64,000 bases of DNA from a virus (IMGVR_UViG_3300033495_000700), one strand, 5' to 3'. Numbered from the stretch's first letter, positions 41,101 to 61,021 are shown. Notes: generated by a model from the sequence alone, not told the origin. Numbers and translations: made by a program.

Positions 41101-41112
41101 TTTTTATCCTTG

Positions 41113-41409: not shown

Positions 41410-41449
41410 TTGATTGTTGCAGTCATTGTCATATACTTTGTGAAATCTG

Positions 41450-42094
41450 TTATGCCGTTTGTGTGGCAGGAGCCAATGCTGCGGCTAGGGCCATGCGTCT
41501 TTGTCTATCTGCGCCTGAACTTCGTTCATAGAATTGATCTACAATGGCAGCAGCATCGTTGGAGGTTTTTGCACTTTTCAATCTTCGCCCGGCGTTTGCT
41601 TCTGTGTTGTTCAATTCCCACTGCACAAACTCCAATTGGTCTTGCAAGCTAGACCCTTGTAATGGTTTACGCATCTCTTTAGCAAAATCTTGTTGTCGTG
41701 ATCCGCGCCACTGTGCAATACCATATGCTTGCTCGCCGGGATTTAGTGCAGCAGGATTTAAATTTGGTGTTGATTCTGCTTGTAGGTTGGCCACTAGACC
41801 GGCAGCTTGTTCAGGCGACCATCCTTGTTGCATAAAGTAGTTTAGGGCAATTTTTGCATTGCCCGATGCGCCACCACCTGCGTTATTGGATGGTCTAGAC
41901 GCACCAGATCCAGGCAAACGTATACGAGATCCTGGCTGAATATCATTAGCATTAGCCAACTGTGGATTTTGCCACATGATGCCATCTACGGTGGTATCGT
42001 AGGACTTGGCTATGCCGGGCAAGGAATCTCCAGATCTCACGGTATAGATATTACTAGAGCTGATGGCTTCGGACAAGAACTCAAATAACTTCAT
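41450..42094 (-). CDS. LysM-domain peptidoglycan hydrolase (phage tail/ejected lysozyme-like), CTS-like N-terminus
   Basis: MKLFEFLSE N-terminus. LysM segment YTVRSGDSLPGIAKSYDTTVDGIMWQNP. C-terminal segment GLVANLQAESTPNLNPAALNPGEQAYGIAQW. Confidence 0.55.
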   Translation of the reverse strand: MKLFEFLSEAISSSNIYTVRSGDSLPGIAKSYDTTVDGIMWQNPQLANANDIQPGSRIRLPGSGASRPSNNAGGGASGNAKIALNYFMQQGWSPEQAAGLVANLQAESTPNLNPAALNPGEQAYGIAQWRGSRQQDFAKEMRKPLQGSSLQDQLEFVQWELNNTEANAGRRLKSAKTSNDAAAIVDQFYERSSGADRQRRMALAAALAPATQTA

Positions 42095-42095
42095 G

Positions 42096-43253: not shown

Positions 43254-43290
43254 GTGATGTTCCTTTATGGATGATCTACGTTTATTTATT

Positions 43291-43491
43291 CTATTTGCCC
43301 TGTGCTGCCAATCTTGCGCCATTGTTAAAACTGTTGCTGTGACTGGCAGCATTCTTGTTGCCACGAGCTTTTGACCACGCATACCCAGCTCTATGGCCAG
43401 AACAATCTTTGGTGCAAGGACTGCCTAGGAACGTAAGTTCATCTAGTGCTTGCTGCGGCTGTTTATTACGAGTAAATTCTCTTGCTCTCAT
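43291..43491 (-). CDS. small basic protein with CTS-like N-terminus (MRAREF)
   Basis: 66 aa. Confidence 0.45.
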   Translation of the reverse strand: MRAREFTRNKQPQQALDELTFLGSPCTKDCSGHRAGYAWSKARGNKNAASHSNSFNNGARLAAQGK

Positions 43492-43967
43492 TTGGCATCC
43501 CCAAAGATTGGCCCACTAACATACTGACCATTTTGACTCAATACACCATTGCGTAGATTCTTGATGATACCGTCGGTGATGTCTCTACGGCGAAAGTGTG
43601 GCAAAAAGATATGAACCTCTACTGGTCGATCACCTTGCTCGCCTAGTATAGCATACATTCTGTGACGTCCGTCATGATCACGTACCTTGGCTTCCAAACT
43701 AAAGTCATCATTTTCCCAAGATTCGGGCACAACCACAGTCAAGAATGGCGCACCAAACCCTGGATCGTTGATCTGTCGGCGTAGATTTTGTATGGTTTCT
43801 TTTTCGTCAGCAGCATCAGCGTCCAAGGGCAAGCTGAGTTTGAGAAATGTGCTGGGTCGCATGACTGTGCGTATACCAAAGTAATCTACATCAGCATTGT
43901 GCGGAACAGCACCCAGACCTTGTTGGTTGTCTATCTTTAGTTCAGTTATGAATTCGCTTGATCTCAT
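43488..43967 (-). CDS. hypothetical protein with CTS-like N-terminus (MRSSEFITE)
   Basis: 159 aa with start/stop overlaps. Confidence 0.5.
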   Translation of the reverse strand: MRSSEFITELKIDNQQGLGAVPHNADVDYFGIRTVMRPSTFLKLSLPLDADAADEKETIQNLRRQINDPGFGAPFLTVVVPESWENDDFSLEAKVRDHDGRHRMYAILGEQGDRPVEVHIFLPHFRRRDITDGIIKNLRNGVLSQNGQYVSGPIFGDAK

Positions 43968-44167
43968 GTGTCTATCCTATGCACATTGGTCACTATGCTG
44001 TCTTTGCCGTATTGAGCTTGCAGCAATAATCGTGCCATGGCAGGTGATTTGGCAAATATAGCCACGTCTATGCTGGTGGTATAAGAGGGATTTTTCACAC
44101 GCACAGACGCACTGTACACATGAAATCCAGGCAGTAGTTCTTCACAAAGGAATTCTGTTGCTCTCAT
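43964..44167 (-). CDS. small protein with CTS-like N-terminus (MRATEFLCEE)
   Basis: Start at ATG 44167 overlaps the TGA of the 44167..45840 gene. Confidence 0.45.
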   Translation of the reverse strand: MRATEFLCEELLPGFHVYSASVRVKNPSYTTSIDVAIFAKSPAMARLLLQAQYGKDSIVTNVHRIDT

Positions 44168-45840
44168 CAGCAGTTCCACTTTCTCAACGCTAATGCTTTG
44201 CGAGTGGGTTTGCCATTGGGTTTTTTCATTGGACCCTTGACTCCGCCCATTCTGGCACAGAATGATTTACGACGTTTGGCTGCTTTTGATCCTGGTTTGA
44301 GTTTGCTGGGCTTGGTGGTCACTGCCATCTGTAATTTTGAGCCAGGATTCTCTCTGCGATAGCTAGCAACACCTTTGGCATTGAGCCCGCCCTTTTTACT
44401 CTTGCCTGCGCTTCTACGCCAAGCTGCTGTTTCAAACAGTTCGTGATCGTCTACTGATTCAAAGTCTTCCCAAATTACATCAGCATCAACACCGTGTGCC
44501 TCAGCCAGTTCCATTACCATTTCTTCAATAAGATCAAACTGTTGATCAGAGTCAAGATCTTCTGTGATTGACTCCTTGGGCACACAGTCAGGGACCATTC
44601 TCCCTCCTTTGTTTTTCATACCAATTTGTTTGTGTGTGTCCCAGCAGGCTTCTTCTAAATCTATACTCTCGTCAGTTTTTTTGGTAGCATTTATATATTT
44701 TCTATACACTGCCGCTGCCTCAGATTTTCCTGCAGCCTTGGCACGTTGTTCCATTGCCACAGCGGCTTGGATCTTGTGTGCGTGACTACGACCACTATTA
44801 CGAATCTTTAACACACTGGCTCTGGCATCTCCTTCTGTGGCAAATTTCAAACCAGTAATAGTGCCGTTGGGATTTTCATCTGTGTACAAGTCGCTATGCT
44901 TTTTACTATTGGCAGATTGTCCTGCTTTTCTTGGGATACGTTTGTTTTCCGTTACATTTGGCTTGAAGGACTGTGAGTTGTCTTGAACCTTGGACTTGCG
45001 CTGTTTGCGATAGTAAGTATTAGCAGGGTCAGTGTCATGACTTTGATCTGGCCACCATTCAATTGTGAATATCTTTCCATTTTCAAAATCATCATGCATA
45101 CTCATGATTCTTTGTTCGTACTCGTCTCGACTAGGAGATGTTCGTCCTGCAACCACATCCATTACAAAGTTCAAAGTAACAGCATTGGCAGCAAGACTAG
45201 CGCATCTGGCACCAACCTCATTCTTAAGATGATCAATCAGTATGCTTTCACTGCAATCTGCCAACGCAGAACTCAGTCTATGAGGCACCCGTAGATCAAT
45301 GTAACTGTAGCAATAGTCATAGTGCGGAGACGGGCTGATATGCATCACATACTCGTCTTTTATTTCGATGCGTTTGAATCCATCAAGATCATGCCACATG
45401 GCAATATCCTTTGTGGCATCATGCGGATCACCAAAAGTCTTGGTCAAATGCCAAGCATACTGTGCCGGTACACGATTGCGCCATGAGCGCAACAGGTCTA
45501 AAATGTTAGGCTGGCTTTTTTCAGCATCAGTTGCGTCTTCGTTGGTATTCTTCACACAGTTAGGATATGTTTTGCCAAACATCTTTTTATTACCTTCTTT
45601 GTGATAGCCTTTCCAACATGCTTCATCTAAATTTTTATGATCCCTGTGTGTTTGACACATACCACAATCAGGGCATGTCATTTCTTCGTCAATACTTTCA
45701 TTGCGTTTTCTCTTGCCAGCACAATGAGCCTTTTGACTGAATCCCTTGGGGTGAGAGCAGTTGATACTACTTTTGTATTTTTGGCTCCACTTTTCATCCA
45801 AGTGACGCATATTTTCTGTGATAAATTCATGGCTTTTCAT
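44167..45840 (-). CDS. 557-aa basic protein with CTS-like N-terminus (MKSHEFITE) and repeated Cys modules
   Basis: EACWKGYHKEGNKKMFGKTYPNCV and EACWDTHKQIGMKNKGGRMVPDCV modules. K/R-rich. Confidence 0.5.
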   Translation of the reverse strand: MKSHEFITENMRHLDEKWSQKYKSSINCSHPKGFSQKAHCAGKRKRNESIDEEMTCPDCGMCQTHRDHKNLDEACWKGYHKEGNKKMFGKTYPNCVKNTNEDATDAEKSQPNILDLLRSWRNRVPAQYAWHLTKTFGDPHDATKDIAMWHDLDGFKRIEIKDEYVMHISPSPHYDYCYSYIDLRVPHRLSSALADCSESILIDHLKNEVGARCASLAANAVTLNFVMDVVAGRTSPSRDEYEQRIMSMHDDFENGKIFTIEWWPDQSHDTDPANTYYRKQRKSKVQDNSQSFKPNVTENKRIPRKAGQSANSKKHSDLYTDENPNGTITGLKFATEGDARASVLKIRNSGRSHAHKIQAAVAMEQRAKAAGKSEAAAVYRKYINATKKTDESIDLEEACWDTHKQIGMKNKGGRMVPDCVPKESITEDLDSDQQFDLIEEMVMELAEAHGVDADVIWEDFESVDDHELFETAAWRRSAGKSKKGGLNAKGVASYRRENPGSKLQMAVTTKPSKLKPGSKAAKRRKSFCARMGGVKGPMKKPNGKPTRKALALRKWNC

Positions 45841-46544
45841 TTGTTCACCTTGCTCATTGTGTTTTTTGTAGTCTTGCCCTGCACCGCAGTGGTGCGAGCA
45901 GGATCGGGTGCAGAATCAGTACTGGCTGCTGGTATATACTGATTGATTGATCTGCGAGTGAGATCACCCAACACACCATCCACATCCAGATTGGCACCAA
46001 ACTTGGTATTCAGCATGTGTTGCAGTCGCCGCACCAGGGCAGATGGTAGACCGTTGCTTTCGGTCACAGCACTTTCGCTCTTGTTGCCGTAGTTGGCAGC
46101 ACCTTTCTTACGACATTGCACCAGGCGGCCCGAAGCATAGGCTGAAGGCCATACTTTAGCCGACGCCTTGACCTTGTAGTAACAAGCATCTTTCTTTTCC
46201 GCAATCATGTGTATGGGATACATGGCTTGGCCACAATGCGGGCATGATTCATGATTTTCGTTGGTCTTTTTTTTGGTGGCCACATTGATAGCAGCACCCT
46301 GACGATTGGCATTGGGATCTTCGCGGCGTTTTCTTGATGCAGCTGACGCTCGTCCTTTTTTGCCCAGAGCATGAGCCTTGGCCTGCGGCAAACACTTGGG
46401 CTTGCCTTCTGATTCAGAGCCACGAGCACAATCACCTCGGATCTTGCCGTCGGGACCAAATCTCACCCATTTTTGTTTGAACCAGTCTCGTAGATTTTCT
46501 TCCAACTGCTGCTGGTGTTCTGTGATAAATTCATGCGATTTCAT
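45837..46544 (-). CDS. 235-aa basic protein with CTS-like N-terminus (MKSHEFITE) and Cys module
   Basis: CPHCGQAMYP...DACYYKVKASAKVWPSAYASGRLVQCRKKG. Confidence 0.5.
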   Translation of the reverse strand: MKSHEFITEHQQQLEENLRDWFKQKWVRFGPDGKIRGDCARGSESEGKPKCLPQAKAHALGKKGRASAASRKRREDPNANRQGAAINVATKKKTNENHESCPHCGQAMYPIHMIAEKKDACYYKVKASAKVWPSAYASGRLVQCRKKGAANYGNKSESAVTESNGLPSALVRRLQHMLNTKFGANLDVDGVLGDLTRRSINQYIPAASTDSAPDPARTTAVQGKTTKNTMSKVNK

Positions 46545-46991
46545 TTACATCACCTTCTTTCCACGATCTTTTTCAGTGATAGGCCCGCCCACTACCCAGG
46601 CCGCACATGTTCTTGTGCCAGCACACTTGAAATGTAAAAAGTTACAATACCCTAGATCTGAAAGATTTATTGTGGCAGCAGCATCTATGTGGGACTCGCT
46701 ACCTCGGATGCCAGACTCAATGCACTTCCGCATGCTGTTGCTGGCATCAAATGCAGCACAGTTGCCGCACATCATGGTTTTTACTATTTTTTCTGGCACA
46801 GCCCAACGACCAGCTGCACCTCGCCAGTAATCCCCTGGCTCTAAAGGATTTGCTGGACCATAGTGATAATCATCTATAGCTGCTTGACGATTTTTGAGAT
46901 TTAGCTCAATGTCGTGAGTGACCACTGGGCACCCTTTTTCCATTGCTTCAACAAGTCTGATAAAACTTTTCATATGCTTATTTAACTCCAA
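46545..46991 (-). CDS. Cys-rich hypothetical protein (degenerate CTS-like MKSFIRLVE)
   Basis: 148 aa with several Cys (CGNCAAFD, CNFLHFKCAGTRTC). Confidence 0.45.
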   Translation of the reverse strand: MELNKHMKSFIRLVEAMEKGCPVVTHDIELNLKNRQAAIDDYHYGPANPLEPGDYWRGAAGRWAVPEKIVKTMMCGNCAAFDASNSMRKCIESGIRGSESHIDAAATINLSDLGYCNFLHFKCAGTRTCAAWVVGGPITEKDRGKKVM

Positions 46992-47511
46992 TTTGTAATA
47001 GACTTGTGTAGTCTGTTTCAGGATCCTGTGCAGACCGTTGGCCTTGGTACAGAATTACACTGAGATCATAATCACCAAAATTGTGATCAACATCATTCCT
47101 GCTTTGTAATGCCACCATGACGCCTGCAGGTATGTGATCGAACCAACCTTGATTTTCTATGTCATGACAACTGGTATTGATCACTAGTCCATCTTGATCC
47201 AGCTGTTGGTAGTTTAACCGATTGGCATCCTTGGCCATGTATTCAGTGTTAGCAATATTCAACATGTGACCCATGCGTTTTGCTGCACGGGTCCTATCAA
47301 CATTTCTATCTACATTCACAATGTGATTGCACTGTATCCGGCTCTTGGCCAACAGTATGCTCATGTTTCCATACCAGGAGCCCAGGATGTAAATTGTGCT
47401 GAACTGATCTTGAATTTTTCCAAGTTCGTGCAGCAACCACAGTTTGTTCAAGACCAGGTCTCGACTAAAACTACCAGAGATTGTGGATGGACTGAATTCT
47501 AATAGTTTCAT
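46978..47511 (-). CDS. hypothetical protein with CTS-like N-terminus (MKLLEF); weak methyltransferase-like motif
   Basis: ILGSWYGNMSILLAK...IVNVDRN. Confidence 0.4.
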   Translation of the reverse strand: MKLLEFSPSTISGSFSRDLVLNKLWLLHELGKIQDQFSTIYILGSWYGNMSILLAKSRIQCNHIVNVDRNVDRTRAAKRMGHMLNIANTEYMAKDANRLNYQQLDQDGLVINTSCHDIENQGWFDHIPAGVMVALQSRNDVDHNFGDYDLSVILYQGQRSAQDPETDYTSLLQIGVK

Positions 47512-48602
47512 TTGTTTTTTGCTCGTCCGGCTTTCATATTGGCCAACCAGTGTGACATGCGTTGTTTTTCACCAGAACTGTTCTTGGCAGTTTTTCTCAA
47601 ACTACTCACACTGGCTTTGGTATTTACGCCCACACGTTTGGCCAAGCCCTTGCGGCCAGGATTTTTGCCGTCGGCAAAGTTTTCATTGACTGAGGGCTCA
47701 CTGGGGGTTATAGGTTTTGCAACAGGTTGCTTGGCTTTGTACATAGCCTCCCATTTGTCTGAAATAGCATTTTTTAATTCCAGTGTGGATTTATAATTAT
47801 TGTCTTGCATGTACTTAATTATCCAAACAGCACTGGCACGGTCTCCCGAATCGGGCTTGCGAGCGTTGCTTAGATCCACACTGAGATTTTGATCTTCCGA
47901 TGGGTTGCCATAGTACCGCATGCTTTTTAAAGCACGTTTTGCTCGGTCACTTAGATGTGATTCGTCGCTCTTGGTAATTAACTCAATCCAGGGTTTCACA
48001 AAGTCTGTGGGCTTGCGAGAAGATCCAGCTGGCTGTGGACCACGCAATACATCACGAGCTTGGCCAGGTGTTTGTGCTCGACGTTTGTCCAACAGTCGCC
48101 ATGCTGCTTCGTCTGTGTAGAAAAACACAGGTAAACCTTGTTGTTTGGCCGTGACCAATATCTGTCTTGTTTCGGGACTGCGATATTCATCTTGTTTTTT
48201 CAGCAACACATGCACTTCAGTCACAGGAGTAATTGGAATAGTGGGCTCTTTACTGAACACACGGTCTTCCGCTTCTCTAGTTCTCGTGCCATTGCTGTGC
48301 AACCATGCACCATCCCAGTAGTCAATGGGTTTCACAATGTATCTAGAGTTAAACCAGTCACCGTCGAGTTTGAACATCACCCCACCTGATCCCACAAAAC
48401 GATGATAATCACCAGTTATGGTTCGTGTTAGACTAAGAAAGTATGGATGTCCAGCAGGTGCATAATTTTCTTCGGATCTGTTACCAATCACGCTGGCCAA
48501 TTCAAAGTTACCAGATTGCAGGATCTTTAGCCCGGCTCTGACACTGGTATAATGAAACAATACCGCAGTGGCTCGTTCAATTAAAAATTCATTAGATCTC
48601 AT
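47508..48602 (-). CDS. hypothetical protein with CTS-like N-terminus (MRSNEFLIE); paralog of the 49000..49623 product
   Basis: Start at ATG 48602 overlaps the TGA of the GNAT gene. Shared N-region LFHYTSVRAGLKIL versus LYHATSIPSMLGMW. Confidence 0.5.
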   Translation of the reverse strand: MRSNEFLIERATAVLFHYTSVRAGLKILQSGNFELASVIGNRSEENYAPAGHPYFLSLTRTITGDYHRFVGSGGVMFKLDGDWFNSRYIVKPIDYWDGAWLHSNGTRTREAEDRVFSKEPTIPITPVTEVHVLLKKQDEYRSPETRQILVTAKQQGLPVFFYTDEAAWRLLDKRRAQTPGQARDVLRGPQPAGSSRKPTDFVKPWIELITKSDESHLSDRAKRALKSMRYYGNPSEDQNLSVDLSNARKPDSGDRASAVWIIKYMQDNNYKSTLELKNAISDKWEAMYKAKQPVAKPITPSEPSVNENFADGKNPGRKGLAKRVGVNTKASVSSLRKTAKNSSGEKQRMSHWLANMKAGRAKNK

Positions 48603-49003
48603 TTTGGGTCCCACTTCATACTTTTGCTGCCCTTGATGGTTGGAGTAAAGCCTTGTGTTCGATAGAACTTGATCAATTTACTTTGACTCACTTGTCCTTT
48701 GTCCCAAGGGAACAGGGTCAAGCTGATGCCATCTTCTCTGGCCATGGCTTGTAGTTCTTGCATGGCACGAGATCCAACCCCTTGACGTAGAGGATATGCT
48801 TGAATCCATTTGACTTCAACTGCACCGCGTTTGCTAAAGCTAGGAGTTAATTCAAACATGGCAAATTGTTGATCATCGCCTTCGCCCCAGATCATAACGT
48901 GATTGTTCTGCATGGTGTAGGGATACTTTGCATAGACTTTTTCAATCCAGGCCTGAGCTGCATCATTTTTGTTTTCTTCAATTAAAAATTCATTGGCTCT
49001 CAT
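48599..49003 (-). CDS. GNAT-family N-acetyltransferase with CTS-like N-terminus (MRANEFLIE)
   Basis: AYPLRQGVGSRAMQELQAMAREDGISLTL matches GNAT motif A. Confidence 0.6.
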   Translation of the reverse strand: MRANEFLIEENKNDAAQAWIEKVYAKYPYTMQNNHVMIWGEGDDQQFAMFELTPSFSKRGAVEVKWIQAYPLRQGVGSRAMQELQAMAREDGISLTLFPWDKGQVSQSKLIKFYRTQGFTPTIKGSKSMKWDPK

Positions 49004-49623
49004 CTGTTGTCATCCCTTGACCGATCATATAGTGGATGATCGGGTCCATACTGTTCTCGTGACCTAATAGGTACATTATATTGTTTCTGTTGATTACCTA
49101 GCTCTTTTTTGACTTCTGTACGTGGATCACGTAGCAATGCATCCCATGTTGTTTGCATTTTGGGATTTTTGAACCAATTGTTTTGCATCAATTCATCATG
49201 AACTCGATCGCCTTTCTTGGGCAACCATATTTCAATCCTTTTTACATATTTTCTAAATGGATCCAACCCACCTTTGATTAGTGTTTCAAATCTGTCAGTA
49301 TCATGCATGTCACTGCGGCGTTGAAATTCATCACTAGAACTTTCTGGCGGTTCACCTTTGAACCAATCTGTACTGGGCATTCTTCTGCGCCCTATGTCTC
49401 TACGCAGCAGGTCTTGATCCAGGGTGAATATCACTCCGCCGCTGGAGCCATATGTGCTTATGTTTTTCAAATACCCCAAAGCATAGTTATAGTTTCTGGT
49501 GGTGCTGACATTGCCACCAAACCCCAATTTGTCATTATGCCACATGCCCAACATACTGGGTATACTAGTAGCATGATACAAGTCAGCTTCTTGATATTCA
49601 TTTAGAAATTCATTTGCTCTCAT
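49000..49623 (-). CDS. hypothetical protein with CTS-like N-terminus (MRANEFLNE)
   Basis: Start at ATG 49623 with a GAGGAT RBS. Confidence 0.5.
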   Translation of the reverse strand: MRANEFLNEYQEADLYHATSIPSMLGMWHNDKLGFGGNVSTTRNYNYALGYLKNISTYGSSGGVIFTLDQDLLRRDIGRRRMPSTDWFKGEPPESSSDEFQRRSDMHDTDRFETLIKGGLDPFRKYVKRIEIWLPKKGDRVHDELMQNNWFKNPKMQTTWDALLRDPRTEVKKELGNQQKQYNVPIRSREQYGPDHPLYDRSRDDNR

Positions 49624-49853
49624 CCGAGATCCTCGGTAATTGCAAACCACGGATCAATGATAACTAATGTGCCATCTTTACGTTGCATAACATTTTCTGT
49701 ATGCAAGTCCCAGCCTATTTTATTTATTTTTCCCGTATGGTACAGCAATGTCATTAATGTGAACAACACGCCGTATTCTGCTTGGTCCCGGTCATCTAAA
49801 TTATCAATACGGTTGAATATTTCTTCAACAGGTATATCGCCAGTGAAGCCTTC
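49620..49853 (-). other. in-frame open continuation after the TAG of the 1753-aa gene, encoding the kinase catalytic loop
   Basis: Same frame as the upstream gene: *EGFTGDIPVEEIFNRIDNLDDRDQAEYGVLFTLMTLLYHTGKINKIGWDLHTENVMQRKDGTLVIIDPWFAITEDLG*. It carries an HxDLHxxNV-like motif and an IID motif, and ends in an ATGA overlap with the next gene. Confidence 0.45.
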
Positions 49854-52800
49854 CTATGTTGCTTCATCTTGAATAATTTGCAAAGCCTGATTCCAGTTCA
49901 TGCGTTGAGTTGATAACGAACTCAGTATCCAGACCATGGCTTCTTCAAAACTGTTATTTTCAATTGGATACAATCGTTCCATATTGATCATGGTGTATTC
50001 TTTATCTAATACATCAAATTTACTAACTGAATTAAATCTAGGCAAATTTTTTATATCATTGTGTGCTGCAGAGAACTCGTAGAACCTATTAAACACTCGT
50101 TCAGATTGTGTGCTTGGATCTTCCGGCATTAATATTTTAATGACATTTTGTTCGTGTTTTGCATATACATTTGCGTCGGCGCCTGATCCTAATTTTTTAT
50201 AGCCGAGAGATTTAAACTGTTTGTCTATTTCTTTAGCAGTATCAGTACCGTACTCGGCCTCCGCCACAGCTGGTTTAATTCTGCTGAATTCGTATCTAAC
50301 CAGGGTGCCAGTGTCTGCACGGAGCGCCCTATATCCCCAGTCTCGGGCATAACGCTGAACCAGTCGGTCATATAGTTTAGCACGACTCTCACTGTTTTGA
50401 CCAGGCTCAACTTCTTTGCTGGCCGAGAAAAATAACTTTTGTGGTTTGTTTTTCTTAATAAATTTTTGGATAGCTGTCAATACAGTGGCAAATATTCGTT
50501 GAGCATCACCGTCGCCGGTTACTTCTTGACTGTTGTTTCTGTAAAACTCAACTCCCCATGTGTCATTTTCATCATCCTCTCGATTGAACATGATGCTTAA
50601 ATTTGTGCCATCAGGTAGTTTGGCCAACATATCAACATCACCATATTCACTTTTTTCAGATTTGGTTTTGTAAGGTTGGTCAAAGGCTTCCACCATGGCC
50701 CCTGGCAGGAAACTGGCTGCTATGTCTCTGCAACTGTTGAAGATGTCGGCATTGTCAGTGACCTGTAGATTGAATGGATAGTCTGTGACAGGATGCTGTG
50801 TGGGGTCTTGCCACCCAGCATAACATTTTTCAATGCCATAGTCAGTTAACAAATCAGTACAACTCTCACCATGCCGCTCATCCATGTCATGCACACACGG
50901 GCTCAGGGTAGTGACCATGATAGCATTGGACCCAATACGACCGTGACGTTTGAGATGATTATCTATGGCCACTCGTTCAGCATGGCGACGTGTTCCGTCG
51001 GGGCCTGGCAAGTTGATACCATAGGTGTGATTGTTTTTGTTGTCAATCAAACAAGCAGCCACACGTCCATACTTGTTTGGATCTGACTCATGTCCACGAT
51101 GTATCATGCTGATGCACTTTTCCAGCACCGTATCTAGTTTACCTAGTTTTGTAATCTCTCGGCTCTCGCCCAGGTCCTCACGTAATCGTTGTTCTAGCAC
51201 TGTGATGTTTTCTGACACTGATTGAGCACGTGGTCTTACTGAGAAGTTACTGGCATCCACTTCTGGATTTGCCTGCATTGCAGTGGCCACCCATTCTTGA
51301 CCCTTACGCCAGGCTTCTGCTTGATTTGCTGCCTGTATCACAAATACTGATTGGTTGGAAGATCTATTGTATACTTCCCACTGTGTTTGTGCCAATGGGA
51401 TATCTAACTCAACCTCTTCTACTCCTGGAATTGGGGTGGATGTGTATTGGCTTTGGCTTGCTGCCTCACCCATTTCTGGTACTACTGTTACTCCGGCCTG
51501 CATACGCCCAGGATTACTACGCATCCAGTTTATGGCCACACGGTTAGCATCACTCTGCACATTGCCCACACCTGAGAAACGATGTATTTCTTGACCGTCT
51601 GGATCTAAGATCAACCAGTTGCCGGTGAATGTTTGCTGGCCTTGCTCTGGACGAGTTAATGTTTGTGGTGCAAAGTTCTGAGCCACATCGGGTTCAATAT
51701 CAATGATGCCACCTTGTGCTGCATCGGCTTGTTGAGTTCGTACGCCATACAATTCAGGAGCTTCACGACGTTGATCAATAACTGAGCGAGCTTCTACTCC
51801 AGCAGCCATGCGGTTGGTCTGAGCCAGCTCTGCCACACTTAACCCATCACTTCTTCTAAACACTTCCCAAGGTCCTGGACCGGTCGGTGTTAGCGTGTTG
51901 CGGTCAACAGGCGGTGCAGCAGGTTCAATCTCTTGAGCAATTAACTCTAATCCAGAGCCCGAGTTTCTTGCATTGTAGTCCTGGATCCAGGCCTCAGCCC
52001 CAGCCTGGTAGCTAAATCTTCTAGGCCCGGCATTGCCTATAGTTACATAACGATCAAGTGGTGGCACCCACACTCCCCAGTTGCCGGTTGTTGTACTGCC
52101 TTGTTCTGTTGGTGTAATACTTTGGAATTTAGAGTCATATGCTCGGATTGGAGTGGCAGTCAAGTCCGTGGCGTAGTCCCATTCAGGAAATTCTTTCTTG
52201 CCTGCTGCAATGGCTTGTGCTGGATTGGTGGCCACCACCTCCACAGATCCGCTGTAGCCTGGGCGACCCACACGCCACACGTATTTTTCACCACCTGTGG
52301 GGTCTTTGGCAACTTTACGTTCTAGTTGTGCTTGTTTAATAAAACTCTTCAATGCTGCCTTGGGCAATTCGCCAGCTGAATACTTTGCAAATATTGCCAA
52401 GGGATCTGTTTCACCCTCGGGTGCCAACATCTTGTACAGCTTCTTGAGATACTCTTGTCTATATGCTTCAGGATTCAATGCAGCACTCATGGCCACGGTG
52501 AAACGCAACAAGGTGTTTTCAATCTTTTCAAAGTTCTCATCTAACCAATCTCCACCGGGGCTACGGAACTCAATATGCCCATCCTTGGTATTGATACTGG
52601 TATACTTGTCTGTGCTTCCTGAATGTATGGCCTTGGTGGCCAGCTGATTCATGCCAGATTTCATTGTGTCTAGAATTTGTTTAGCATTGGCAGGAGTGAT
52701 TTTTCCCTTGATCTTACTGATTGCAGATTTTGCATATTGGTTAGTGGATCTTCCAAAATTGTCCAACACATATTCGTCACCCATCAGCAGGGCTAATTTC

Positions 52801-55115
52801 ACATAGTCCAACTGATCTATACTGTAATTGGGCACTGAAATATTGATGTGCAAGCCAGTTGATTGGTTGGTATAAACACCCATGCGTCCAGCCCAGGCCT
52901 TGACAGCATTTAAATCTTTAAGCAGTTCATCTATGGGCATGGGAGGTGATACAAACTCCAGTCCTTCGTCGCCGTCGTCGTTGCCTTCCAAACTGCCGTC
53001 GGGTTCTACTATATAAAACTGATTTTTTGGTCCAGGTCTTTCTCCAGACTGATGATATCTTGTGTTGACCCGCACTTCACGACCCACAGCCTGACTGAAT
53101 TCGTCAGCTACCATCTGTGTGTCGACACTGTCGTTGCCCTCGTTAGGGTTACTCCAATGCGGCCATTGAATATCGTATTCGTCTTCAACGTTGCTCATAA
53201 GTCCAAGACCTTCAGCCCTCAACCAGTCGCTTTCGTCGTAATCGCCGTATTTTTCTTCACGATACTCATCCAGAGCTGATTGATAATAGTCATTGTTGGG
53301 ATCACTATACACCTCTCTCACAAACTCTTCAAGTAGCTCGTTTCGTTCATCTCCAGTTAACTCGGTGGGATTCCATTCATCATCGTTTAGATTGTTCTGA
53401 ACCCAATCACGAACAAAAACTTCACCGTCACTATCCCAGTCTTTGTCTATCTTTACCGTGAGCCATTCCTGGAAATCATTCTCCATTTTTTCACGCAATT
53501 CTCTAACATCTCTGCGACTGTTCATGTCACCGTCATTAAAAAACGCCACAGCATCATCAATGCTGCTGCAGCGTGTATCAAAGTCATAGTCTGCTTCTAA
53601 TTCATCATTGCTTTGGTCGCTGTCGATGCCTGGCACAATCATTTCAAATTCCATACCAGCAATGGCACCAGTCTTGGCTGCTTCCTTGCGCAGACTCTTC
53701 CCGCCCATGTTGATTTCAAACAGATCCTTCTCTTTGAACTCGCGCAGCAGCTTGTTTAATCCAGCTGTGAGCACGGCCGGATGACCTTGTGAATCTGTTT
53801 TTAATCCCAGTTTGTTGGCTTCTTTGCCCACCGCACCGGGACGCACATCCCGAGTCAAGGCCATCACAAACCTTGGGTCCCGAGCCTGTGCCTTTGTGGG
53901 GATATAACCAGATGCTTCTTCCAGTGTGACACCATCAAACATCTCAGGTTGTTCTTCGGCCCAATCTCTCATGATACGGCCGGCCATGGCGTTGGCTTGG
54001 TCTTCCCAGGGGCTACCAGTTTTGCCAGCATCTATGGGCAGAGGATTTGTTTCATCCTGCTGACGATGTGTCATTTCATGAGCCATTGTGCGAAGTATAT
54101 CCAACACATGGCGACCTGCGGTGGCCAAAATCAATGTGTTGGTGTCTGAATCATATTGCCCAAAACTACCATTCTCTTGACTCCAGTCGGGTGTGGTTTC
54201 CAAACGCAATTTGGGTGGATTCTCTAATTCAAGTTTATCCACACAACTGGTATAGAATCGATGTAGAATCTTTTTCAAGTGATCAGTATCCACACTTTCG
54301 TCCACTTGTTCAGATTCAGTACCAGCAGAATGATCTTGACCAGCATATGCAGTGCCCGGATACCAGTAATCACGCATGCCGTAATTGACTTTCTTTCTGG
54401 CCGCAGGTTTACGATGTAAACTTAACTCACGATCTTGTATTGCTGTCTTGGCATCTTTTAATTCACCAATGCAACCCATGTTTCTCAACAGTTTGAACAC
54501 AATGTTTTCACAACCAAACTCGCCAGTTTTCTCTAGGCCAGTTTTGCGCATTGTTTTGATCTTGTCCCACAGTTGATTAACAGCATCTGCATTGCCGGAC
54601 TTGATAGCCGAATGTATTCTAGCATCAAGATCAGCTGTTTTGTGTTGTACACAAGAGTCATCTATGCGAGCACGACGTTGCTGTGGAACTTGTACCCAGT
54701 CACCATTCTTCACGCTGTAGATGCCTTGACTCACATGCTTTTGATCACTAGGCTGCACATACAGTTCTACTGGTACACCGGCGATCTTTATATTGTGAGT
54801 ATCATTAAATTCGTATTTTTTTGCATTGAACAGTTCTTGATACACCGGATCGGCAGGCATGTCCACCACAAGATGTAGATCAATGTCTGAGTTTTTTGTA
54901 TATGAATAAGCCGCATTAGATCCAGACACTGTGATATCTTTTACTTTGAGATCATCTACTCCTAAGAATTCTTGAAAAAACTCTGCTATTGAGAGCAATT
55001 TTTCTTTAACCTCAGGCAACAAGTGTTCGTCTCTGCCCCACAAACTGGGGTTAAGACGTTGATGGAATTTTACAGCATCCGCGAGATTATAGTTATCAAG
55101 ATCATGAAATTTCAT
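49854..55115 (-). CDS. 1753-aa multidomain virion/effector-like protein (nucleotidyltransferase, HExxH, cytidine-deaminase-like, protein-kinase-like)
   Basis: N-terminal GSNAAYSYTKNSDIDLHLVVD (Pol-beta-type NTase). TMAHEMTHRQQDE (HExxH). RHAERVAIDN...LSPCVHDMDERHGESC (CDA-fold H-A-E...PC..C). C-terminal LGSGADANVYAKHEQNVIKIL (kinase Gly loop plus Lys). Ends at TAG 49854. Confidence 0.7.
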   Translation of the reverse strand: MKFHDLDNYNLADAVKFHQRLNPSLWGRDEHLLPEVKEKLLSIAEFFQEFLGVDDLKVKDITVSGSNAAYSYTKNSDIDLHLVVDMPADPVYQELFNAKKYEFNDTHNIKIAGVPVELYVQPSDQKHVSQGIYSVKNGDWVQVPQQRRARIDDSCVQHKTADLDARIHSAIKSGNADAVNQLWDKIKTMRKTGLEKTGEFGCENIVFKLLRNMGCIGELKDAKTAIQDRELSLHRKPAARKKVNYGMRDYWYPGTAYAGQDHSAGTESEQVDESVDTDHLKKILHRFYTSCVDKLELENPPKLRLETTPDWSQENGSFGQYDSDTNTLILATAGRHVLDILRTMAHEMTHRQQDETNPLPIDAGKTGSPWEDQANAMAGRIMRDWAEEQPEMFDGVTLEEASGYIPTKAQARDPRFVMALTRDVRPGAVGKEANKLGLKTDSQGHPAVLTAGLNKLLREFKEKDLFEINMGGKSLRKEAAKTGAIAGMEFEMIVPGIDSDQSNDELEADYDFDTRCSSIDDAVAFFNDGDMNSRRDVRELREKMENDFQEWLTVKIDKDWDSDGEVFVRDWVQNNLNDDEWNPTELTGDERNELLEEFVREVYSDPNNDYYQSALDEYREEKYGDYDESDWLRAEGLGLMSNVEDEYDIQWPHWSNPNEGNDSVDTQMVADEFSQAVGREVRVNTRYHQSGERPGPKNQFYIVEPDGSLEGNDDGDEGLEFVSPPMPIDELLKDLNAVKAWAGRMGVYTNQSTGLHINISVPNYSIDQLDYVKLALLMGDEYVLDNFGRSTNQYAKSAISKIKGKITPANAKQILDTMKSGMNQLATKAIHSGSTDKYTSINTKDGHIEFRSPGGDWLDENFEKIENTLLRFTVAMSAALNPEAYRQEYLKKLYKMLAPEGETDPLAIFAKYSAGELPKAALKSFIKQAQLERKVAKDPTGGEKYVWRVGRPGYSGSVEVVATNPAQAIAAGKKEFPEWDYATDLTATPIRAYDSKFQSITPTEQGSTTTGNWGVWVPPLDRYVTIGNAGPRRFSYQAGAEAWIQDYNARNSGSGLELIAQEIEPAAPPVDRNTLTPTGPGPWEVFRRSDGLSVAELAQTNRMAAGVEARSVIDQRREAPELYGVRTQQADAAQGGIIDIEPDVAQNFAPQTLTRPEQGQQTFTGNWLILDPDGQEIHRFSGVGNVQSDANRVAINWMRSNPGRMQAGVTVVPEMGEAASQSQYTSTPIPGVEEVELDIPLAQTQWEVYNRSSNQSVFVIQAANQAEAWRKGQEWVATAMQANPEVDASNFSVRPRAQSVSENITVLEQRLREDLGESREITKLGKLDTVLEKCISMIHRGHESDPNKYGRVAACLIDNKNNHTYGINLPGPDGTRRHAERVAIDNHLKRHGRIGSNAIMVTTLSPCVHDMDERHGESCTDLLTDYGIEKCYAGWQDPTQHPVTDYPFNLQVTDNADIFNSCRDIAASFLPGAMVEAFDQPYKTKSEKSEYGDVDMLAKLPDGTNLSIMFNREDDENDTWGVEFYRNNSQEVTGDGDAQRIFATVLTAIQKFIKKNKPQKLFFSASKEVEPGQNSESRAKLYDRLVQRYARDWGYRALRADTGTLVRYEFSRIKPAVAEAEYGTDTAKEIDKQFKSLGYKKLGSGADANVYAKHEQNVIKILMPEDPSTQSERVFNRFYEFSAAHNDIKNLPRFNSVSKFDVLDKEYTMINMERLYPIENNSFEEAMVWILSSLSTQRMNWNQALQIIQDEAT

Positions 55116-56159: not shown

Positions 56160-56852
56160 CTACGACCTGGCTTCGTCCAAATAATCTTCAACAATGGGCT
56201 GATTGTACTTGCTTTGATAACTGGCCCGCATGCCGCCTTGGCTCATTTGACGTGTGACTTGTTCTGCAACTGCTGTGCCCATAACAGTATCCAACATCCG
56301 GACCACATTTTTTGCCAACTGAGGATTGCTTTGTGTTGCGGGATAAAGGCTCATGACTAATGCAGTTCGTTGGCGTTCCGTCAAGTCAGGCCATGCTGTG
56401 CGTATTTGTGTAGCCGATGTCATACCTGGACCAAACTTCACAACGGGCAAGTAGGTCATGTATGCGTGTTGAGTCATGGGCGCCATACGGTCACTGATGG
56501 GTTGCAGATATGACGGTGTACCGTCACGTTTCACACCACCCGGCTGCGGAGGCTTCGTGGCGTCTTTTTCACTGCGAGCAAAGATCAACTGAGTATCGGC
56601 AGGATTGTAATTTTTTGTTATTTCTTCTGCACGAAATGGACTCTTGACTTGATAGAAGTCTCCAGGAGAAACTCCGGCCAACTGTGCTAGTTTTTCTTTT
56701 AGTTTAAACGGGAATGGCCGATTTGAAGTGTCGTTGGTTGCAGCCACTTTGACATCAGCATTGGGAAATGCTCGTTGAGCAGATTTATACAGTGCTAAAT
56801 GGCCGGGGTGAAAAGGGTGTGCGCCCATTGGTAATACTACTAAAGTTTTCAT
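56160..56852 (-). CDS. HxGH-motif nucleotidyltransferase (cytidylyltransferase-like / NMNAT-like)
   Basis: KTLVVLPMGAHPFHPGHLALY matches the (T/H)xGH signature. Start taken at ATG 56852. Confidence 0.5.
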   Translation of the reverse strand: MKTLVVLPMGAHPFHPGHLALYKSAQRAFPNADVKVAATNDTSNRPFPFKLKEKLAQLAGVSPGDFYQVKSPFRAEEITKNYNPADTQLIFARSEKDATKPPQPGGVKRDGTPSYLQPISDRMAPMTQHAYMTYLPVVKFGPGMTSATQIRTAWPDLTERQRTALVMSLYPATQSNPQLAKNVVRMLDTVMGTAVAEQVTRQMSQGGMRASYQSKYNQPIVEDYLDEARS

Positions 56853-56923
56853 GCATATATTTATAAATAAAGGTGTAGTTCGCAATACTGCAAATATCTA
56901 ACTACTATACAAGTGGCAGGAAT

Positions 56924-57472: not shown

Positions 57473-58168
57473 TTATGGTCGTTTTTGCACTTGTACAGTT
57501 TTGCGAGTCAGCCCCGGGCATACTATTGCCAACATGGTAAGATGTTTGAGATCATGGTGTTCTACAAAATAATGCTCTCGGCTCCATGCCGAATACGGAG
57601 ATGCTTTACCCCATCCAAGACCTTGTGTGATAGTAGTATCAGTAAACCATCTTTCAGTAACAGGACTGGCCACAAGATCCGGAGTCTGATGGCTGATCCA
57701 GTTCCACACTGCTTGTTTTTTATCTCTAGATAATCTCTTTTCCTTGAGATAAGTTCTATATGGATATTTGGGTTGATTGATCAACATGATCACATCCTTA
57801 GGATACGCCAGCACTGCTTGTTTAGCACTGGATTCTGTTGGATAATTTCTAAACAGCGTATCGACATCTTTGATGTCATTGGTGTAAATATGAAAAGTAT
57901 TGTACCCATATGTGCGGTGAATAAATTTACTATCCAGAGTTTCTAATACATCCACCGCATGCAGTATGTTTTGTTTGGTCAAATCTGATGTCAATTGGGA
58001 CCCAATTGACGACTTATATTGATCACGTTTACGTATACGTTCCAGGATCATTGGGCGAGAAAGACTACTCAACAACCAAGCATCATCAATATGTAGACTT
58101 ACCACATATTCATACTTGCCAAAATAAAGTGATCCGCGTGGTTCACACTGCCATTGAGGTAGTAACAT
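57473..58168 (-). CDS. hypothetical protein
   Basis: 231-aa ORF. Confidence 0.4.
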   Translation of the reverse strand: MLLPQWQCEPRGSLYFGKYEYVVSLHIDDAWLLSSLSRPMILERIRKRDQYKSSIGSQLTSDLTKQNILHAVDVLETLDSKFIHRTYGYNTFHIYTNDIKDVDTLFRNYPTESSAKQAVLAYPKDVIMLINQPKYPYRTYLKEKRLSRDKKQAVWNWISHQTPDLVASPVTERWFTDTTITQGLGWGKASPYSAWSREHYFVEHHDLKHLTMLAIVCPGLTRKTVQVQKRP

Positions 58169-59339
58169 GCTGTGGTGCCTTTAGTTCAAATACAATTTTA
58201 TCCGCCTGCAATTCTACATTCAATGCACAATCAGTCAGCTGTTCAAACAAGATTCGTCTGCTTAATGGTACACGAATCAATTCATCAATTTTGCGATTCA
58301 ACGGACGAGCACCCATCTTGCTGTCGTAGCCTTGTTCTGCCAACAATTCAATCACAGGCTCCGAGAAAAACAATCGGATATTCTTTTCTGCCACACTAGA
58401 TTTCAGTTGGTCCAAGAACTTCACAACAATCTTCTTGATAGCCAGTGTATCCAACTTGGTAAACTTGCAAATTTTGTCAATACGATTACGTAGCTCTGGG
58501 CGGAAGAACTCTTTCATTGCACGATCTTCTTCGCCAGATTTCTCTAAGTCAGTACTGAATCCAATGTTGTTGTTTTCATTGTCTCTGGCACCCAGGTTAG
58601 ATGTCATGATAATAATGGTGTTTTTGCAGTCTACTCGTTTGCCATTTGCACCTGTCACATGTCCTTCATCCAGCATCTGCAGCAGGATATTGGTAACATC
58701 TGAATGTGCTTTTTCAATTTCATCAAACAAGATCACAGAGAATGGATGTTTACTTAGGTCACTGATAAGTTTTCCGCCGCCTACATTACCATCTTCAAAT
58801 CCCACATATCCTGGAGGTGCACCGATCAAACTGCTGACAGAAAACTTCTCTTGGAACTCACTCATGTCATAGCGTAACAAGTGCATGTCCAAATTTTCAC
58901 TCAATAGCTTGGCTAATTCTGTATTGTGATGAATAATACCGTTTGATGTTTGATACAAGTGGGTCGGAGAATCTACACTTAAATCATAGAATACTGTGTC
59001 GTTGATAGATTCAATGTTGGTCACTTGAATTTTTTCGCCATTGGCTGTGATGATGCATTCTCCAATGATAAGTTCATTTAGAAAAACACAAGTTGTTCCA
59101 CCGTCAATTGAAATTCGATGGTTCCTAGCAGCTTTGACTATGCTACCGTTACTAAAAGTAATTTGTAGTCCGATATCATTTTTAGTGACAGCAGCATTGA
59201 TTCTGACCCAGTTGTTTTTTTCATCTTTGATTTTTAATTCAGAATTAAGGAATTGTTCTTGTTCCGGAATAAAATTAAGTTTTTCGTATTGCTCAAGTAT
59301 GGCAAAGAGTTTGCCAATTGGTAATGTTTGTTCGATCAT
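58143..59339 (-). CDS. ClpA/ClpB-like ATPase C-terminal fragment: large split-intein C-half (139 aa) followed by the rest of AAA+ D2
   Basis: ...VFYDLSVDSPTHLYQTSNGIIHHN|TELAKLLSENL...GAPPGYVGFEDGN...ILFDEIEKAH...LLQMLDEGHVTG...IIIMTSNLGA. The extein resumes exactly at the T of GPTGxGKT. TAGGAGA RBS. Confidence 0.8.
   Translation of the reverse strand: MIEQTLPIGKLFAILEQYEKLNFIPEQEQFLNSELKIKDEKNNWVRINAAVTKNDIGLQITFSNGSIVKAARNHRISIDGGTTCVFLNELIIGECIITANGEKIQVTNIESINDTVFYDLSVDSPTHLYQTSNGIIHHNTELAKLLSENLDMHLLRYDMSEFQEKFSVSSLIGAPPGYVGFEDGNVGGGKLISDLSKHPFSVILFDEIEKAHSDVTNILLQMLDEGHVTGANGKRVDCKNTIIIMTSNLGARDNENNNIGFSTDLEKSGEEDRAMKEFFRPELRNRIDKICKFTKLDTLAIKKIVVKFLDQLKSSVAEKNIRLFFSEPVIELLAEQGYDSKMGARPLNRKIDELIRVPLSRRILFEQLTDCALNVELQADKIVFELKAPQHVTTSMAV
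58923..59339 (-). other. atypical split intein, large C-terminal half (IntC, 139 aa) ending HHN|T
   Basis: Blocks F/G VFYDLSVDSPTHLYQTSNGIIHHN. Preceded by a 113-nt spacer with a hairpin. Confidence 0.7.
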
Positions 59340-59452: not shown

Positions 59453-61021
59453 CTAGATTAGGTTATATTCTTTAGCAAACTTATACATATCGTTGGTCAT
59501 CTGTACAGTTACTTCTTGGTCGTGGGCTAAACATTTACCTGTGCCAGTTGGGCCCAGGAACAAGAAACTTGCCATGGGCTTGCCTTGTGTACCAATTCCA
59601 GAGAAGTTGATGTACACACGTTCCAGTACTGAGTCCACGGCTTGTTCTTGTCCATAGAGCTTTTGTTTGATGTTGCTTTCTAGATCCACAATCTTCAAAC
59701 TGCGTTCATTTTGCAGTCTGTCAGTGGGCACGCCAGTTACCCGTGCCACTTGTTCTTCAATCATGCTTTTGTTCACAGTGACTAGACCTGCATCTTTAAC
59801 ACGTTCTCTAGCACAGGCAGCATCCAGCAAGTCAATGCTTTTGTCTGGATTCTTCTTGTCATGAATATATCGAGCAGCAAGATCCACAGCAGCAGTCATG
59901 GCTTCTGTGTCAATCAGCACATTGTGGAATGTTTCCAAGCGTGGGCTTAGTCCAATTAGAATTTTTTCTGTGGTGTCACGATCTGGTTCATCAATGCTGA
60001 GACGATAGAATCGACGCATGAGTGCTCGATCTTTCTCAAATGATTCGTAGTATTCTTCCCAAGTTGTGCTGGCAATAACTTTCAAATGGCCTTTGGTAAT
60101 TGCTGGTTTCAGCATGTTGGCAAAGTCCAAGCTACCAGAACTACCTGCTCCTGCACCTTTCATGGTGTGTGCTTCGTCCACAAACAAGATACACTTTTTC
60201 TTGGCTTCCAGTGCAGAGATCACTGCCTTGAACTTTTCTTCAAAGTCGCCGCGATATTTAGATCCTGCTACCAAACTGCCAATTTCCAGACTCCATATTT
60301 CGTGATCTTTGAGGAACTCAGGCACACGATTTTGTGCAATTTCCTGTGCAAGGCCTTCAATGATAGCAGTTTTGCCCACACCAGGATCACCCACCATGAG
60401 TACATTGGCTTTGAAACGACGTGCCAGCACAGCAATCATTTCGTCTAATTCTTTTGAACGACCAATCAACGGCTCCAGTTGGTCAGCAGAGGCCATTGCA
60501 CTTAGACTGGTACAATATTCTTCCAACACTTCAGTAGCTTGTTGATGATTCATACCTGCGGCTGCTCGTTCTGACTTGTAGTTCCTGGTCCAAAAATCCA
60601 CAAATTCAGCTTTGTGTACGCCGTATTTCAACAAGAAGTAGTGTGCATTGCTGTTGGTCTCACCCATGATGGCCAAGTACAAGTCAATGGTCACAACTTG
60701 TCTACGTCCTGTAAACAACACCTGAGTCAGCGCACGATTAAACACTCGTTCCAATGCAGCGGTCTTGCGTGGAGTTAAATCTTCTCCAGCGCGAATCAGA
60801 CTTTGTAGGCTGTCCAGATAGCCACACAGTTCAGTTTCCAACATGGCCACGTCACAGCCATATTTGGCTAGAGTTTTTCTAAATGAATCATGTCTTACTA
60901 GACTCAACAGTAAATGTTCTGTTAGAACATACTCATGATGCCAGGTACGTGCAATCTGCACCGCACCTTCAATGATGGCGTCAATTTCGGGATTGTCTTG
61001 AATTTGGTTTGAATTGCTCAT
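59453..61021 (-). CDS. ClpA-like ATPase N-terminal fragment (N domain, AAA+ D1, start of D2 through the P-loop GPTGTGK) plus short split-intein N-half
   Basis: VLMVGDPGVGKTAIIEGLAQ (D1 Walker A), ILFVDEAH (Walker B), FLFLGPTGTGK then CLAHDQEVTVQMTNDMYKFAKEYNLI*. Confidence 0.8.
   Translation of the reverse strand: MSNSNQIQDNPEIDAIIEGAVQIARTWHHEYVLTEHLLLSLVRHDSFRKTLAKYGCDVAMLETELCGYLDSLQSLIRAGEDLTPRKTAALERVFNRALTQVLFTGRRQVVTIDLYLAIMGETNSNAHYFLLKYGVHKAEFVDFWTRNYKSERAAAGMNHQQATEVLEEYCTSLSAMASADQLEPLIGRSKELDEMIAVLARRFKANVLMVGDPGVGKTAIIEGLAQEIAQNRVPEFLKDHEIWSLEIGSLVAGSKYRGDFEEKFKAVISALEAKKKCILFVDEAHTMKGAGAGSSGSLDFANMLKPAITKGHLKVIASTTWEEYYESFEKDRALMRRFYRLSIDEPDRDTTEKILIGLSPRLETFHNVLIDTEAMTAAVDLAARYIHDKKNPDKSIDLLDAACARERVKDAGLVTVNKSMIEEQVARVTGVPTDRLQNERSLKIVDLESNIKQKLYGQEQAVDSVLERVYINFSGIGTQGKPMASFLFLGPTGTGKCLAHDQEVTVQMTNDMYKFAKEYNLI
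59456..59533 (-). other. atypical split intein, short N-terminal half (IntN, 26 aa, Cys1)
   Basis: CLAHDQEVTV... lies directly after the Walker A Lys. Compare 25-aa IntN fragments of AceL/GOS TerL-type atypical split inteins. Confidence 0.65.

Follow-up and report, generated by a model that had tools for sequence, protein, structure and literature searches.

When a stop codon interrupts a conserved enzymatic domain and the reading frame stays open beyond it, the gene may have been broken, the sequence may be wrong, or the stop may be one that is passed over in translation. This question is raised by a very large gene in a stretch of 64,000 nucleotides of the viral sequence IMGVR_UViG_3300033495_000700 (the whole stretch is called the window here). 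The listing of open reading frames (ORFs) for the window gives a minus-strand ORF of 1753 amino acids at 55115..49854, which starts with ATG and ends with TAG at 49856-49854, in the context ...GAA GCA ACA TAG GAA GGC.... Past the TAG, 77 sense codons follow in the same frame before a TGA at 49622-49620, which shares an ATGA with the start codon of the following gene (ATG, 49623-49621). The motifs of a kinase are divided by the stop, with the Gly-rich loop (LGSGADANVY) and the beta3 Lys (VIKIL) on its 5' side and GWDLHTENVM and IIDPWF on its 3' side. An initial annotation of this DNA, made without database searches, had described the ORF, the stop, the 77-codon continuation with its overlap and the division of the kinase motifs, all of which we find where it placed them, and had left two readings open, a nonsense mutation or sequencing error on the one hand and amber read-through or suppression on the other. 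The features in question are as follows.

49620..55115, minus strand: whole polyvalent-protein gene; 1831 codons plus TGA in the intact allele, with codon 1754 being TAG here
49623..50264, minus strand: Kinase-PolyVal domain, amino acids 1618-1831 of the intact protein, identified by Pfam and PHROG profiles, alignment and fold
49854..49856, minus strand: in-frame TAG, due to an A at 49855 on the gene strand (T on the plus strand), where all other assemblies have G, giving TGG (Trp)
49623..49853, minus strand: the 77 codons cut off by the TAG, comprising the helix before the catalytic loop, the loop itself (GWDLHTEN) and the Mg-binding Asp in IIDPWF
49000..49623, minus strand: next gene, 207 amino acids (MRANEFLNEY...), its ATG overlapping the kinase TGA, with a GAGGA Shine-Dalgarno-like motif upstream

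The evidence that bears most directly on the question comes from other assemblies of the same strain, which were found through the exact sequences of two neighbouring proteins of 207 and 323 amino acids. The contigs recovered in this way come from the JGI assemblies 3300033064 and 3300032523 and from the Logan assemblies SRR28106061, SRR28106032, SRR28106045, SRR28106046 and SRR28106113. Position 49855 is covered by six distinct contigs (all of the above except SRR28106113), and every one of them has G there and so reads TGG. Four contigs contain the complete gene (loci L021/L027, L022, L023 and L028), which is called in them as a protein of 1831 amino acids, that is, 1753 + 1 + 77, and over its 5496 nucleotides they differ from the window at exactly one base, the G versus A at 49855; at the few variable sites that remain, the window matches at least one other assembly. 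The protein cluster table gives the same picture, with the intact 1831-residue protein on four contigs and a 1753-residue product on a single JGI contig of 76,495 bp, where it is identical to the product of the window and where a leftover ORF of 44 amino acids was also called separately. Exact look-ups of the 1753-residue product and of the 44-residue ORF returned no record, though both are in the protein cluster table, and the exact DNA pattern around the TAG had no match in the IMG/VR or JGI metagenome contigs, two sets that lack the contig of the window and its strain relatives. Apart from this base the gene is identical to the intact allele of other samples, so the change to TAG must be very recent and is not programmed, and since six assemblies of the same strain read Trp, what remains is a nonsense variant or a sequencing error rather than programmed read-through. 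The former half of the initial annotation's pair of readings is therefore upheld by the TGG of homologues and same-strain contigs alike, and the latter half lacks support, the stop being unconserved and no suppressor tRNA having been found in the 64 kb.

The homologues give the same answer over a longer span of evolution. The column of the alignment in which the TAG falls is Trp in 73 of the 75 homologues that carry the kinase, none of the 75 ends there, and in a separate alignment of 15 homologues Trp likewise occupies the column in most. At the DNA level the closest relatives beyond the strain (loci L001-L005, 87-90% protein identity) read ACC TGG GAA, all six of the more distant loci also have TGG at the site, and the kinase is uninterrupted in all 19 loci examined. 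With TGG in the relatives, the TAG is one G>A transition away. A comparison with homologues had been proposed in the initial annotation as one way to judge the stop, and it returns a sense codon at this position and no homologue that ends there without the C-terminal lobe of the kinase. Against the same close relatives the ratio of nonsynonymous to synonymous substitution rates (dN/dS) is 0.06-0.12 in the 77 downstream codons (dS about 0.45-0.5) and 0.12-0.13 upstream, and on this comparison the downstream codons show no sign of decay. An old pseudogene is rejected by the low dN/dS together with the single-base difference from the intact allele, and an intein or intron at the TAG by the collinearity of the gene with its intact homologues.

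That the frame beyond the stop encodes the rest of a kinase is clear from several comparisons, in agreement with the initial annotation. When the sequence is joined across the TAG it gives one continuous match to the "protein kinase" profile phrog_15752 (residues 7-205 of 214, E 5e-12), and it aligns over its full length with intact homologues, the downstream part falling on the kinase catalytic core. The Pfam family Kinase-PolyVal (PF18762) matches the joined sequence at E 1.9e-5 and 25.1 bits, just under its cutoff of 27, and the homologues P0001-P0004 (87-90% identical) have a precomputed PF18762 match that is marked as faint at their loci. A profile search of the kinase against Protein Data Bank (PDB) sequences gave no significant match. 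An AlphaFold model of P0001, a stand-alone kinase 90% identical to the domain in the window, has a predicted local distance difference test score (pLDDT) of 79, and its top 50 structural matches in the PDB are nearly all protein kinases, pseudokinases and aminoglycoside phosphotransferases (probability 0.97-1.0, template modelling score about 0.36). Among 34 homologues, in the numbering of P0001, G49, G51, K66, D209, H211 and D227 are invariant and N214 is at least 90% conserved; D209, H211, N214 and D227 all fall 3' of the TAG in the window allele. With the T7 gp0.7-type kinases of phrog_15752 and with Kinase-PolyVal the domain shares the GSGADA loop, the Lys of VIKIL, the D..H.EN loop and the Mg-binding Asp. 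It ends nine residues past that Asp, an early end that fits the loss of the C-terminal kinase subdomain, with retention of the active-site residues, described for the PolyVal clade (Iyer et al. 2017, PMC5512222). The window copy differs from the family in scoring 25.1 bits where the cutoff is 27 and in being interrupted by the TAG.

We consider it probable that the TAG is a real but rare loss-of-function allele of a dispensable accessory domain. In this account a single G>A transition at 49855 (C>T on the plus strand) would have turned the conserved TGG into TAG, and translation would stop there to give a protein of 1753 amino acids that keeps the nucleotidyltransferase, HExxH, amidoligase, deaminase and DUF6934-like modules described below. 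The truncated kinase would consist of the ATP-binding half only and, lacking both the catalytic loop and the Mg-binding Asp, should be dead. The intact protein, for its part, may travel in the phage head and enter the host along with the DNA, so that its modules, including the T7 gp0.7-like kinase, would modify host targets early in infection. Several points weigh against this account: the TAG allele is a singleton, known from one contig; judged from assembly consensus alone, an error in the source assembly keeps a real though clearly smaller share of the probability; a suppressor tRNA elsewhere in the genome, outside the 64 kb of the window, is formally possible; and packaging and injection are argued from the similarity of leader sequences and from the literature.

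The strongest competitor is thus that the A at 49855 is an error of sequencing or assembly consensus, or a library-damage artefact (C>T on the plus strand), and that the phage in the sample really carries TGG. We regard this as possible but doubtful. The allele is found on one contig, against six TGG contigs whose gene is otherwise identical, and C>T is a typical deamination artefact. On the other side, a metagenome contig of 76 kb would normally be covered deeply enough for a reliable consensus, and no other gene is disrupted in the 64 kb of the window, where ORFs of at least 100 amino acids under the standard code cover about 91% of the minus strand. There is also the contig from SRR28106113 (locus L026), which begins exactly one base past the variant, a coincidence with a chance of about 0.002 given some 20 contig ends in 23 kb; such a break fits a branch in a de Bruijn graph and hints that the site is polymorphic in nature.

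It could also be supposed that the stop is a selected knock-out, loss of the kinase helping a subpopulation, for example by escape from a host defence that recognises the kinase or what it produces. The gene does lie in a hyper-variable effector region where cassettes are frequently exchanged and the turnover of effectors is common, and the site is perhaps polymorphic in another sample. Against this, the allele is a singleton with no recurrence, the kinase is uninterrupted in the 75 homologues and 19 loci, and there is no evidence for any sensing system; we therefore hold selection to be improbable.

As for recoding, TAG is rare as a terminator in this DNA but is put to normal use. It is the genuine stop, conserved in three relatives, of the neighbouring gene at 56160..56885, and the intein fragment of a Clp-like ATPase (59453) likewise ends in TAG. 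Among the 12 minus-strand ORFs of at least 60 amino acids that end in TAG, no other has a long open continuation, the next longest being 35 codons. The initial annotation had looked to a suppressor tRNA(CUA) as the sign of amber suppression; ARAGORN and Rfam find none in the 64 kb, where tRNA-Met(CAT) is the sole tRNA, and one lying outside the window would be irrelevant to the origin of the TAG, given the TGG contigs of the same strain. The conserved stop nearby, the lack of any other in-frame TAG and the roughly 91% coverage under the standard code together lead us to reject a global recoding of TAG. With phages that have reassigned TAG or TGA, such as Lak and crAss-like phages, and with cases of programmed read-through, the locus shares an in-frame TAG in a conserved domain and an open continuation; it differs from them in having one such site, private to one assembly, in a setting where TAG is a normal stop in neighbouring genes, the window holds no suppressor tRNA and relatives have a sense codon at the site. 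Least probable of all is the idea that an amber suppressor tRNA, from the phage or its host, or a programmed mechanism lets some ribosomes pass the TAG, so that a minority of full-length, kinase-active protein is made. Although the frame past the TAG is open and unbroken up to the native stop of the kinase, and although the window is part of a genome whose relatives are jumbo phages, which can carry many tRNAs, that intactness is fully accounted for by the one-base distance from the intact allele, no relative stops here, TAG is a conserved true stop nearby, the window has neither a tRNA(CUA) nor another in-frame TAG, and termination in Escherichia coli is efficient when a G follows the TAG. 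Suppression and selected knock-out between them are left with only a small chance.

The 77-codon piece is rejected as a separate product, since the first canonical start codon that the frame offers beyond the TAG, as read off the sequence, is the GTG of codon 29, from which only about 49 amino acids are possible. The 207-residue gene that follows has its own GAGGA Shine-Dalgarno-like motif, so this gene need not rely on translational coupling; the ATGA junction between kinase and next gene is also found in relative L001. The TAG should not be taken as evidence for amber suppression or recoding in this phage lineage, and the stop itself, whether an error or a single-base change that inactivates an accessory domain, is of little weight. 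The approach is of more general use, since looking up the neighbouring genes by exact match among other assemblies can quickly settle whether a stop is programmed or accidental.

The protein that carries the kinase belongs to a class already known, the polyvalent proteins of phages and conjugative elements (Iyer, Burroughs, Anand, de Souza & Aravind 2017, J Bacteriol, PMC5512222), which unite several different domains (2-15), most of them enzymatic, in a single polypeptide and of which the Kinase-PolyVal domain is a component. Besides the kinase, the following domains are found.

54417..55088, minus strand: N-terminal Pol-beta-type nucleotidyltransferase, GS...DIDLH, amino acids 10-233; phrog_36119 E 3.7e-43, PF01909 weak
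54048..54287, minus strand: HExxH (AHEMTH) region, putative metallopeptidase, amino acids 277-356; weak matches, below curated cutoffs
52545..53117, minus strand: Amidoligase_2, amino acids 667-857; PF12224 E 9e-7, 29.4 bits against a cutoff of 22
50817..51128, minus strand: zinc-binding cytidine/dCMP deaminase, HAE ... PC..C, amino acids 1330-1433; PF00383 E 2.5e-10, 40.6 bits against a cutoff of 25
50265..50687, minus strand: DUF6934-like module, amino acids 1477-1617; weak Pfam match, between ...FLPGAMVE|AFDQPY and ...KPAVAE|AEYGT

Of the domains other than the kinase that the initial annotation named, the deaminase and the nucleotidyltransferase are borne out by PF00383 and phrog_36119, and the HExxH region has only weak family matches (DUF6782 at E 0.019 in the whole protein and 0.0015 in the excised segment; DUF6055 at E 2e-4); the Amidoligase_2 domain had been overlooked. 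The nucleotidyltransferase module has stand-alone homologues in T4-like cyanophages, one of them annotated as an aminoglycoside nucleotidyltransferase. Between amino acids ~940 and 1300 (window ~51215-52295) five stretches of ~45-55 residues resemble repeats by eye, of the form W-x-V...A..A...W, for example YVWRVGRPGYSGSVEVVATNPAQAIAAGKKEFPEW and QWEVYNRSSNQSVFVIQAANQAEAWRKGQEWV; these putative repeats have no Pfam or PHROG match and were not picked up by a BLASTP comparison of the protein with itself. A second very large ORF in the window, of 1261 amino acids (36036-39821, minus strand), has faint matches only, one of them (E 0.007) to DUF6934, the module family that is also present in the C-terminal cassette of the giant protein.

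With the polyvalent proteins as described, the giant protein shares multiple enzymatic modules in one polypeptide (at least six here), the Pol-beta nucleotidyltransferase, metallopeptidase-like HExxH, deaminase and PolyVal-clade kinase among them, its being encoded by a tailed phage, and the presence nearby of small ORFs with alternative modules that recombine into the main gene. It departs from them in that its family has a fixed core of ~1477 amino acids (nucleotidyltransferase, HExxH, amidoligase, small repeats and deaminase) that ends in a conserved ASFLP(G/Q)AxxE junction, beyond which the C-terminal cassette can be swapped; the word "amidoligase" does not occur in the main text of PMC5512222. 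The kinase clade is reported there mainly from phages and prophages of the Verrucomicrobia-Chlamydia group and the Bacteroidetes, whereas the kinase of the window sits in a T4-related phage lineage. Homologues of the giant protein number more than 1500 at E<=1e-20, from metagenomes, and in cultured phages none was found beyond the nucleotidyltransferase module. More than 60 of them are conserved up to ...ASFLP(G/Q)AxxE and then continue into at least eight different, unrelated cassettes, and some smaller proteins are built from these modules in series, linked through ...xE|A junctions. The fuller form of the conserved junction, ...NADIFN(S/T)C(R/K)DIAASFLP(G/Q)AxxE, lies at amino acids 1455-1477 (window ~50685-50753). 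Recombination probably takes place at this joint, which may also be a protease site.

This exchange of cassettes also bears on the position of the kinase. All 75 kinase homologues are stand-alone or lie within proteins of fewer than 600 amino acids, and the fusion to the giant protein is found in this strain only. In relatives outside the strain (L001, L002 and L010) the giant protein ends in other C-terminal cassettes, such as an M23 peptidase, and the kinase is a separate gene of 235-237 amino acids that starts MRAIEF.... In the strain of the window the DUF6934-like module (50687-50265) stands where the relatives have these other cassettes, the stop codon and the leader of the kinase, and through this replacement the kinase has become an in-frame extension of the giant. 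In relatives the giant gene and the kinase meet at an in-frame TAA-CTT-ATG, which was checked as a possible special feature and taken to be an ordinary gene boundary.

The initial annotation had likened the domain mix to polymorphic toxins, which is a fair analogy as far as the variable C-terminal cassette goes, and one that is also drawn in PMC5512222, but the correct class is that of the polyvalent proteins. Shared with the toxins are a conserved N-terminal body, a variable C-terminal enzymatic tip, alternative cassettes downstream and the deaminase family. The differences are the phage-genome context and the nature of the downstream cassettes, which are enzymes with a leader like that by which T4 targets proteins to its head. 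Pfam and PHROGs show no secretion or trafficking domain in the giant protein; an immunity gene was not searched for.

The leader just mentioned marks a long run of genes downstream of the giant:

40888..49623, minus strand: leader array, 12 consecutive genes starting M[RK]xxEF[LI]xE, which resembles the T4 capsid-targeting sequence

Examples are MRANEFLIEE, MKSHEFITEH and MRSSEFITEL, and all matches to the pattern in the window fall between 55115 and 41100, the listed upstream genes having no such leader. The same leader is present in 57 of the 75 kinase homologues, and in relatives a leader array opens with the kinase; arrays also lie at 10001-17655 in L001 and 13643-22307 in L010. Behind the leaders the array genes are unrelated modules, including GNAT, DUF6321, a peptidoglycan-binding domain, and LysM with lysozyme. 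In T4 the internal proteins IPII and IPIII both start MKTYQEFIAE, and in the T4 capsid-targeting sequence targeting is governed by residues 4 and 7, and processing by the prohead protease by residues 8 and 10 (PMC9026906). Like the T4 proteins IPI, IPII, IPIII and Alt (PMC9026906, PMC3012670), the array combines a short N-terminal leader with otherwise unrelated, fast-evolving proteins; its leader likewise ends in (L/I)xE, the motif required by the T4 prohead protease, and the phage is T4-related by its DNA polymerase. The array leader differs from that of T4 in being one residue shorter, and the giant protein itself starts MKFHDLDNYN, only loosely similar to the typical leader. No head genes, including a gp21-type prohead protease, were found in the window or in the flanking sequence that was retrieved.

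By this analogy the products of the 12-gene array are probably effectors that are packaged in the head and injected. We tentatively go further, to a proposal that we think has a somewhat less than even chance of being right, namely that the giant protein and the 12 leader genes form one head-packaged, injected effector system, in which cassettes are marked by a T4-type targeting and protease-site motif (...EF[LI]xE|) and the giant protein is a polyprotein string of cassettes that a gp21-type protease could cut at its ...AxxE| junctions. Within the giant, the junctions FLPGAMVE|AFDQPY and KPAVAE|AEYGT may be such protease sites. If this were true, the TAG allele would be a natural knock-out of the last cassette, and the polyvalent proteins of Aravind and colleagues would be tied mechanistically to the internal-protein pathway of T4. 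The interest of the locus lies here, as it sets a very large, metagenome-only family of giant proteins with a swappable cassette beside a leader array and so offers a testable route for loading the head.

The phage is an uncultured relative of the T4-type jumbo phages. The window encodes a T4-type family B DNA polymerase whose nearest cultured relatives are those of the jumbo phages PA5oct, Phosso and Atu_ph07 (45-49% identity), of which Atu_ph07 has been placed in the T4-related "group 2.2" (Iyer et al. 2021, PMC7824862), and its other phage markers are an RNA ligase, a Phage_lysozyme2 domain, an intron and inteins. A kinase search of viral and metagenome contigs gave only relatives of 44-54% identity and none in GTDB genomes, and megablast and tblastn searches of the region and the kinase against 50,697 GenBank phages gave no match, so far as sequence comparison can tell leaving the phage with no close relative in culture.

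Several further features of the window deserve mention. A small segment at 42699-42745 has six clustered mismatches and an overlapping alignment of ~80 nucleotides against L021, and contig L022 ends at 42745; strains that otherwise hardly differ thus have a short variable or repeated segment here. The gene for the DNA polymerase is broken into pieces (30583-35362, minus strand), with an N-terminal part at 33743..35362 and a C-terminal part at 30583..31569. Within this region lie an endonuclease-like ORF (NUMOD3, MTES_1575/Vsr-like; 32723..33703, minus strand) and a group I intron at 32337-32556 (Rfam RF00028, 82 bits). At the end of a polymerase piece of 171 amino acids (31768..32283), following ...IIYGD|S, stands the N fragment of an intein (Intein_splicing E 2.8e-9), and the C-terminal part starts with ~41 amino acids ending ...VHN|TDS. 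The polymerase gene thus appears to contain both an intron and a split intein, the latter in polymerase motif C.

A ClpB-like ATPase that is a single gene of 755 amino acids in L001, L002, L003 and L010 is two genes in the window (59453..61021 and 58143..59339), divided in the Walker A loop (58923-59533, minus strand). The first reads GPTGTGK|CLAHDQEV..., continuing for 26 amino acids to a TAG, and the second opens with 139 amino acids ending ...IIHHN|TELAKLL. The match to Pfam Intein_splicing is weak (E 0.0085), and the strain-level contigs have the ATPase divided in the same way. The arrangement suggests a naturally split intein whose N fragment is unusually short and whose C fragment is long, which we take to resemble the "atypical" split inteins of the AceL-TerL/GOS-TerL type. 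Finally, at 16473-17333 and 22937-23725 (minus strand) a QueE-like radical SAM protein and a GTP cyclohydrolase adjoin a glycosyltransferase and sugar epimerases, a gene set that suggests DNA modification of the 7-deazaguanine type.

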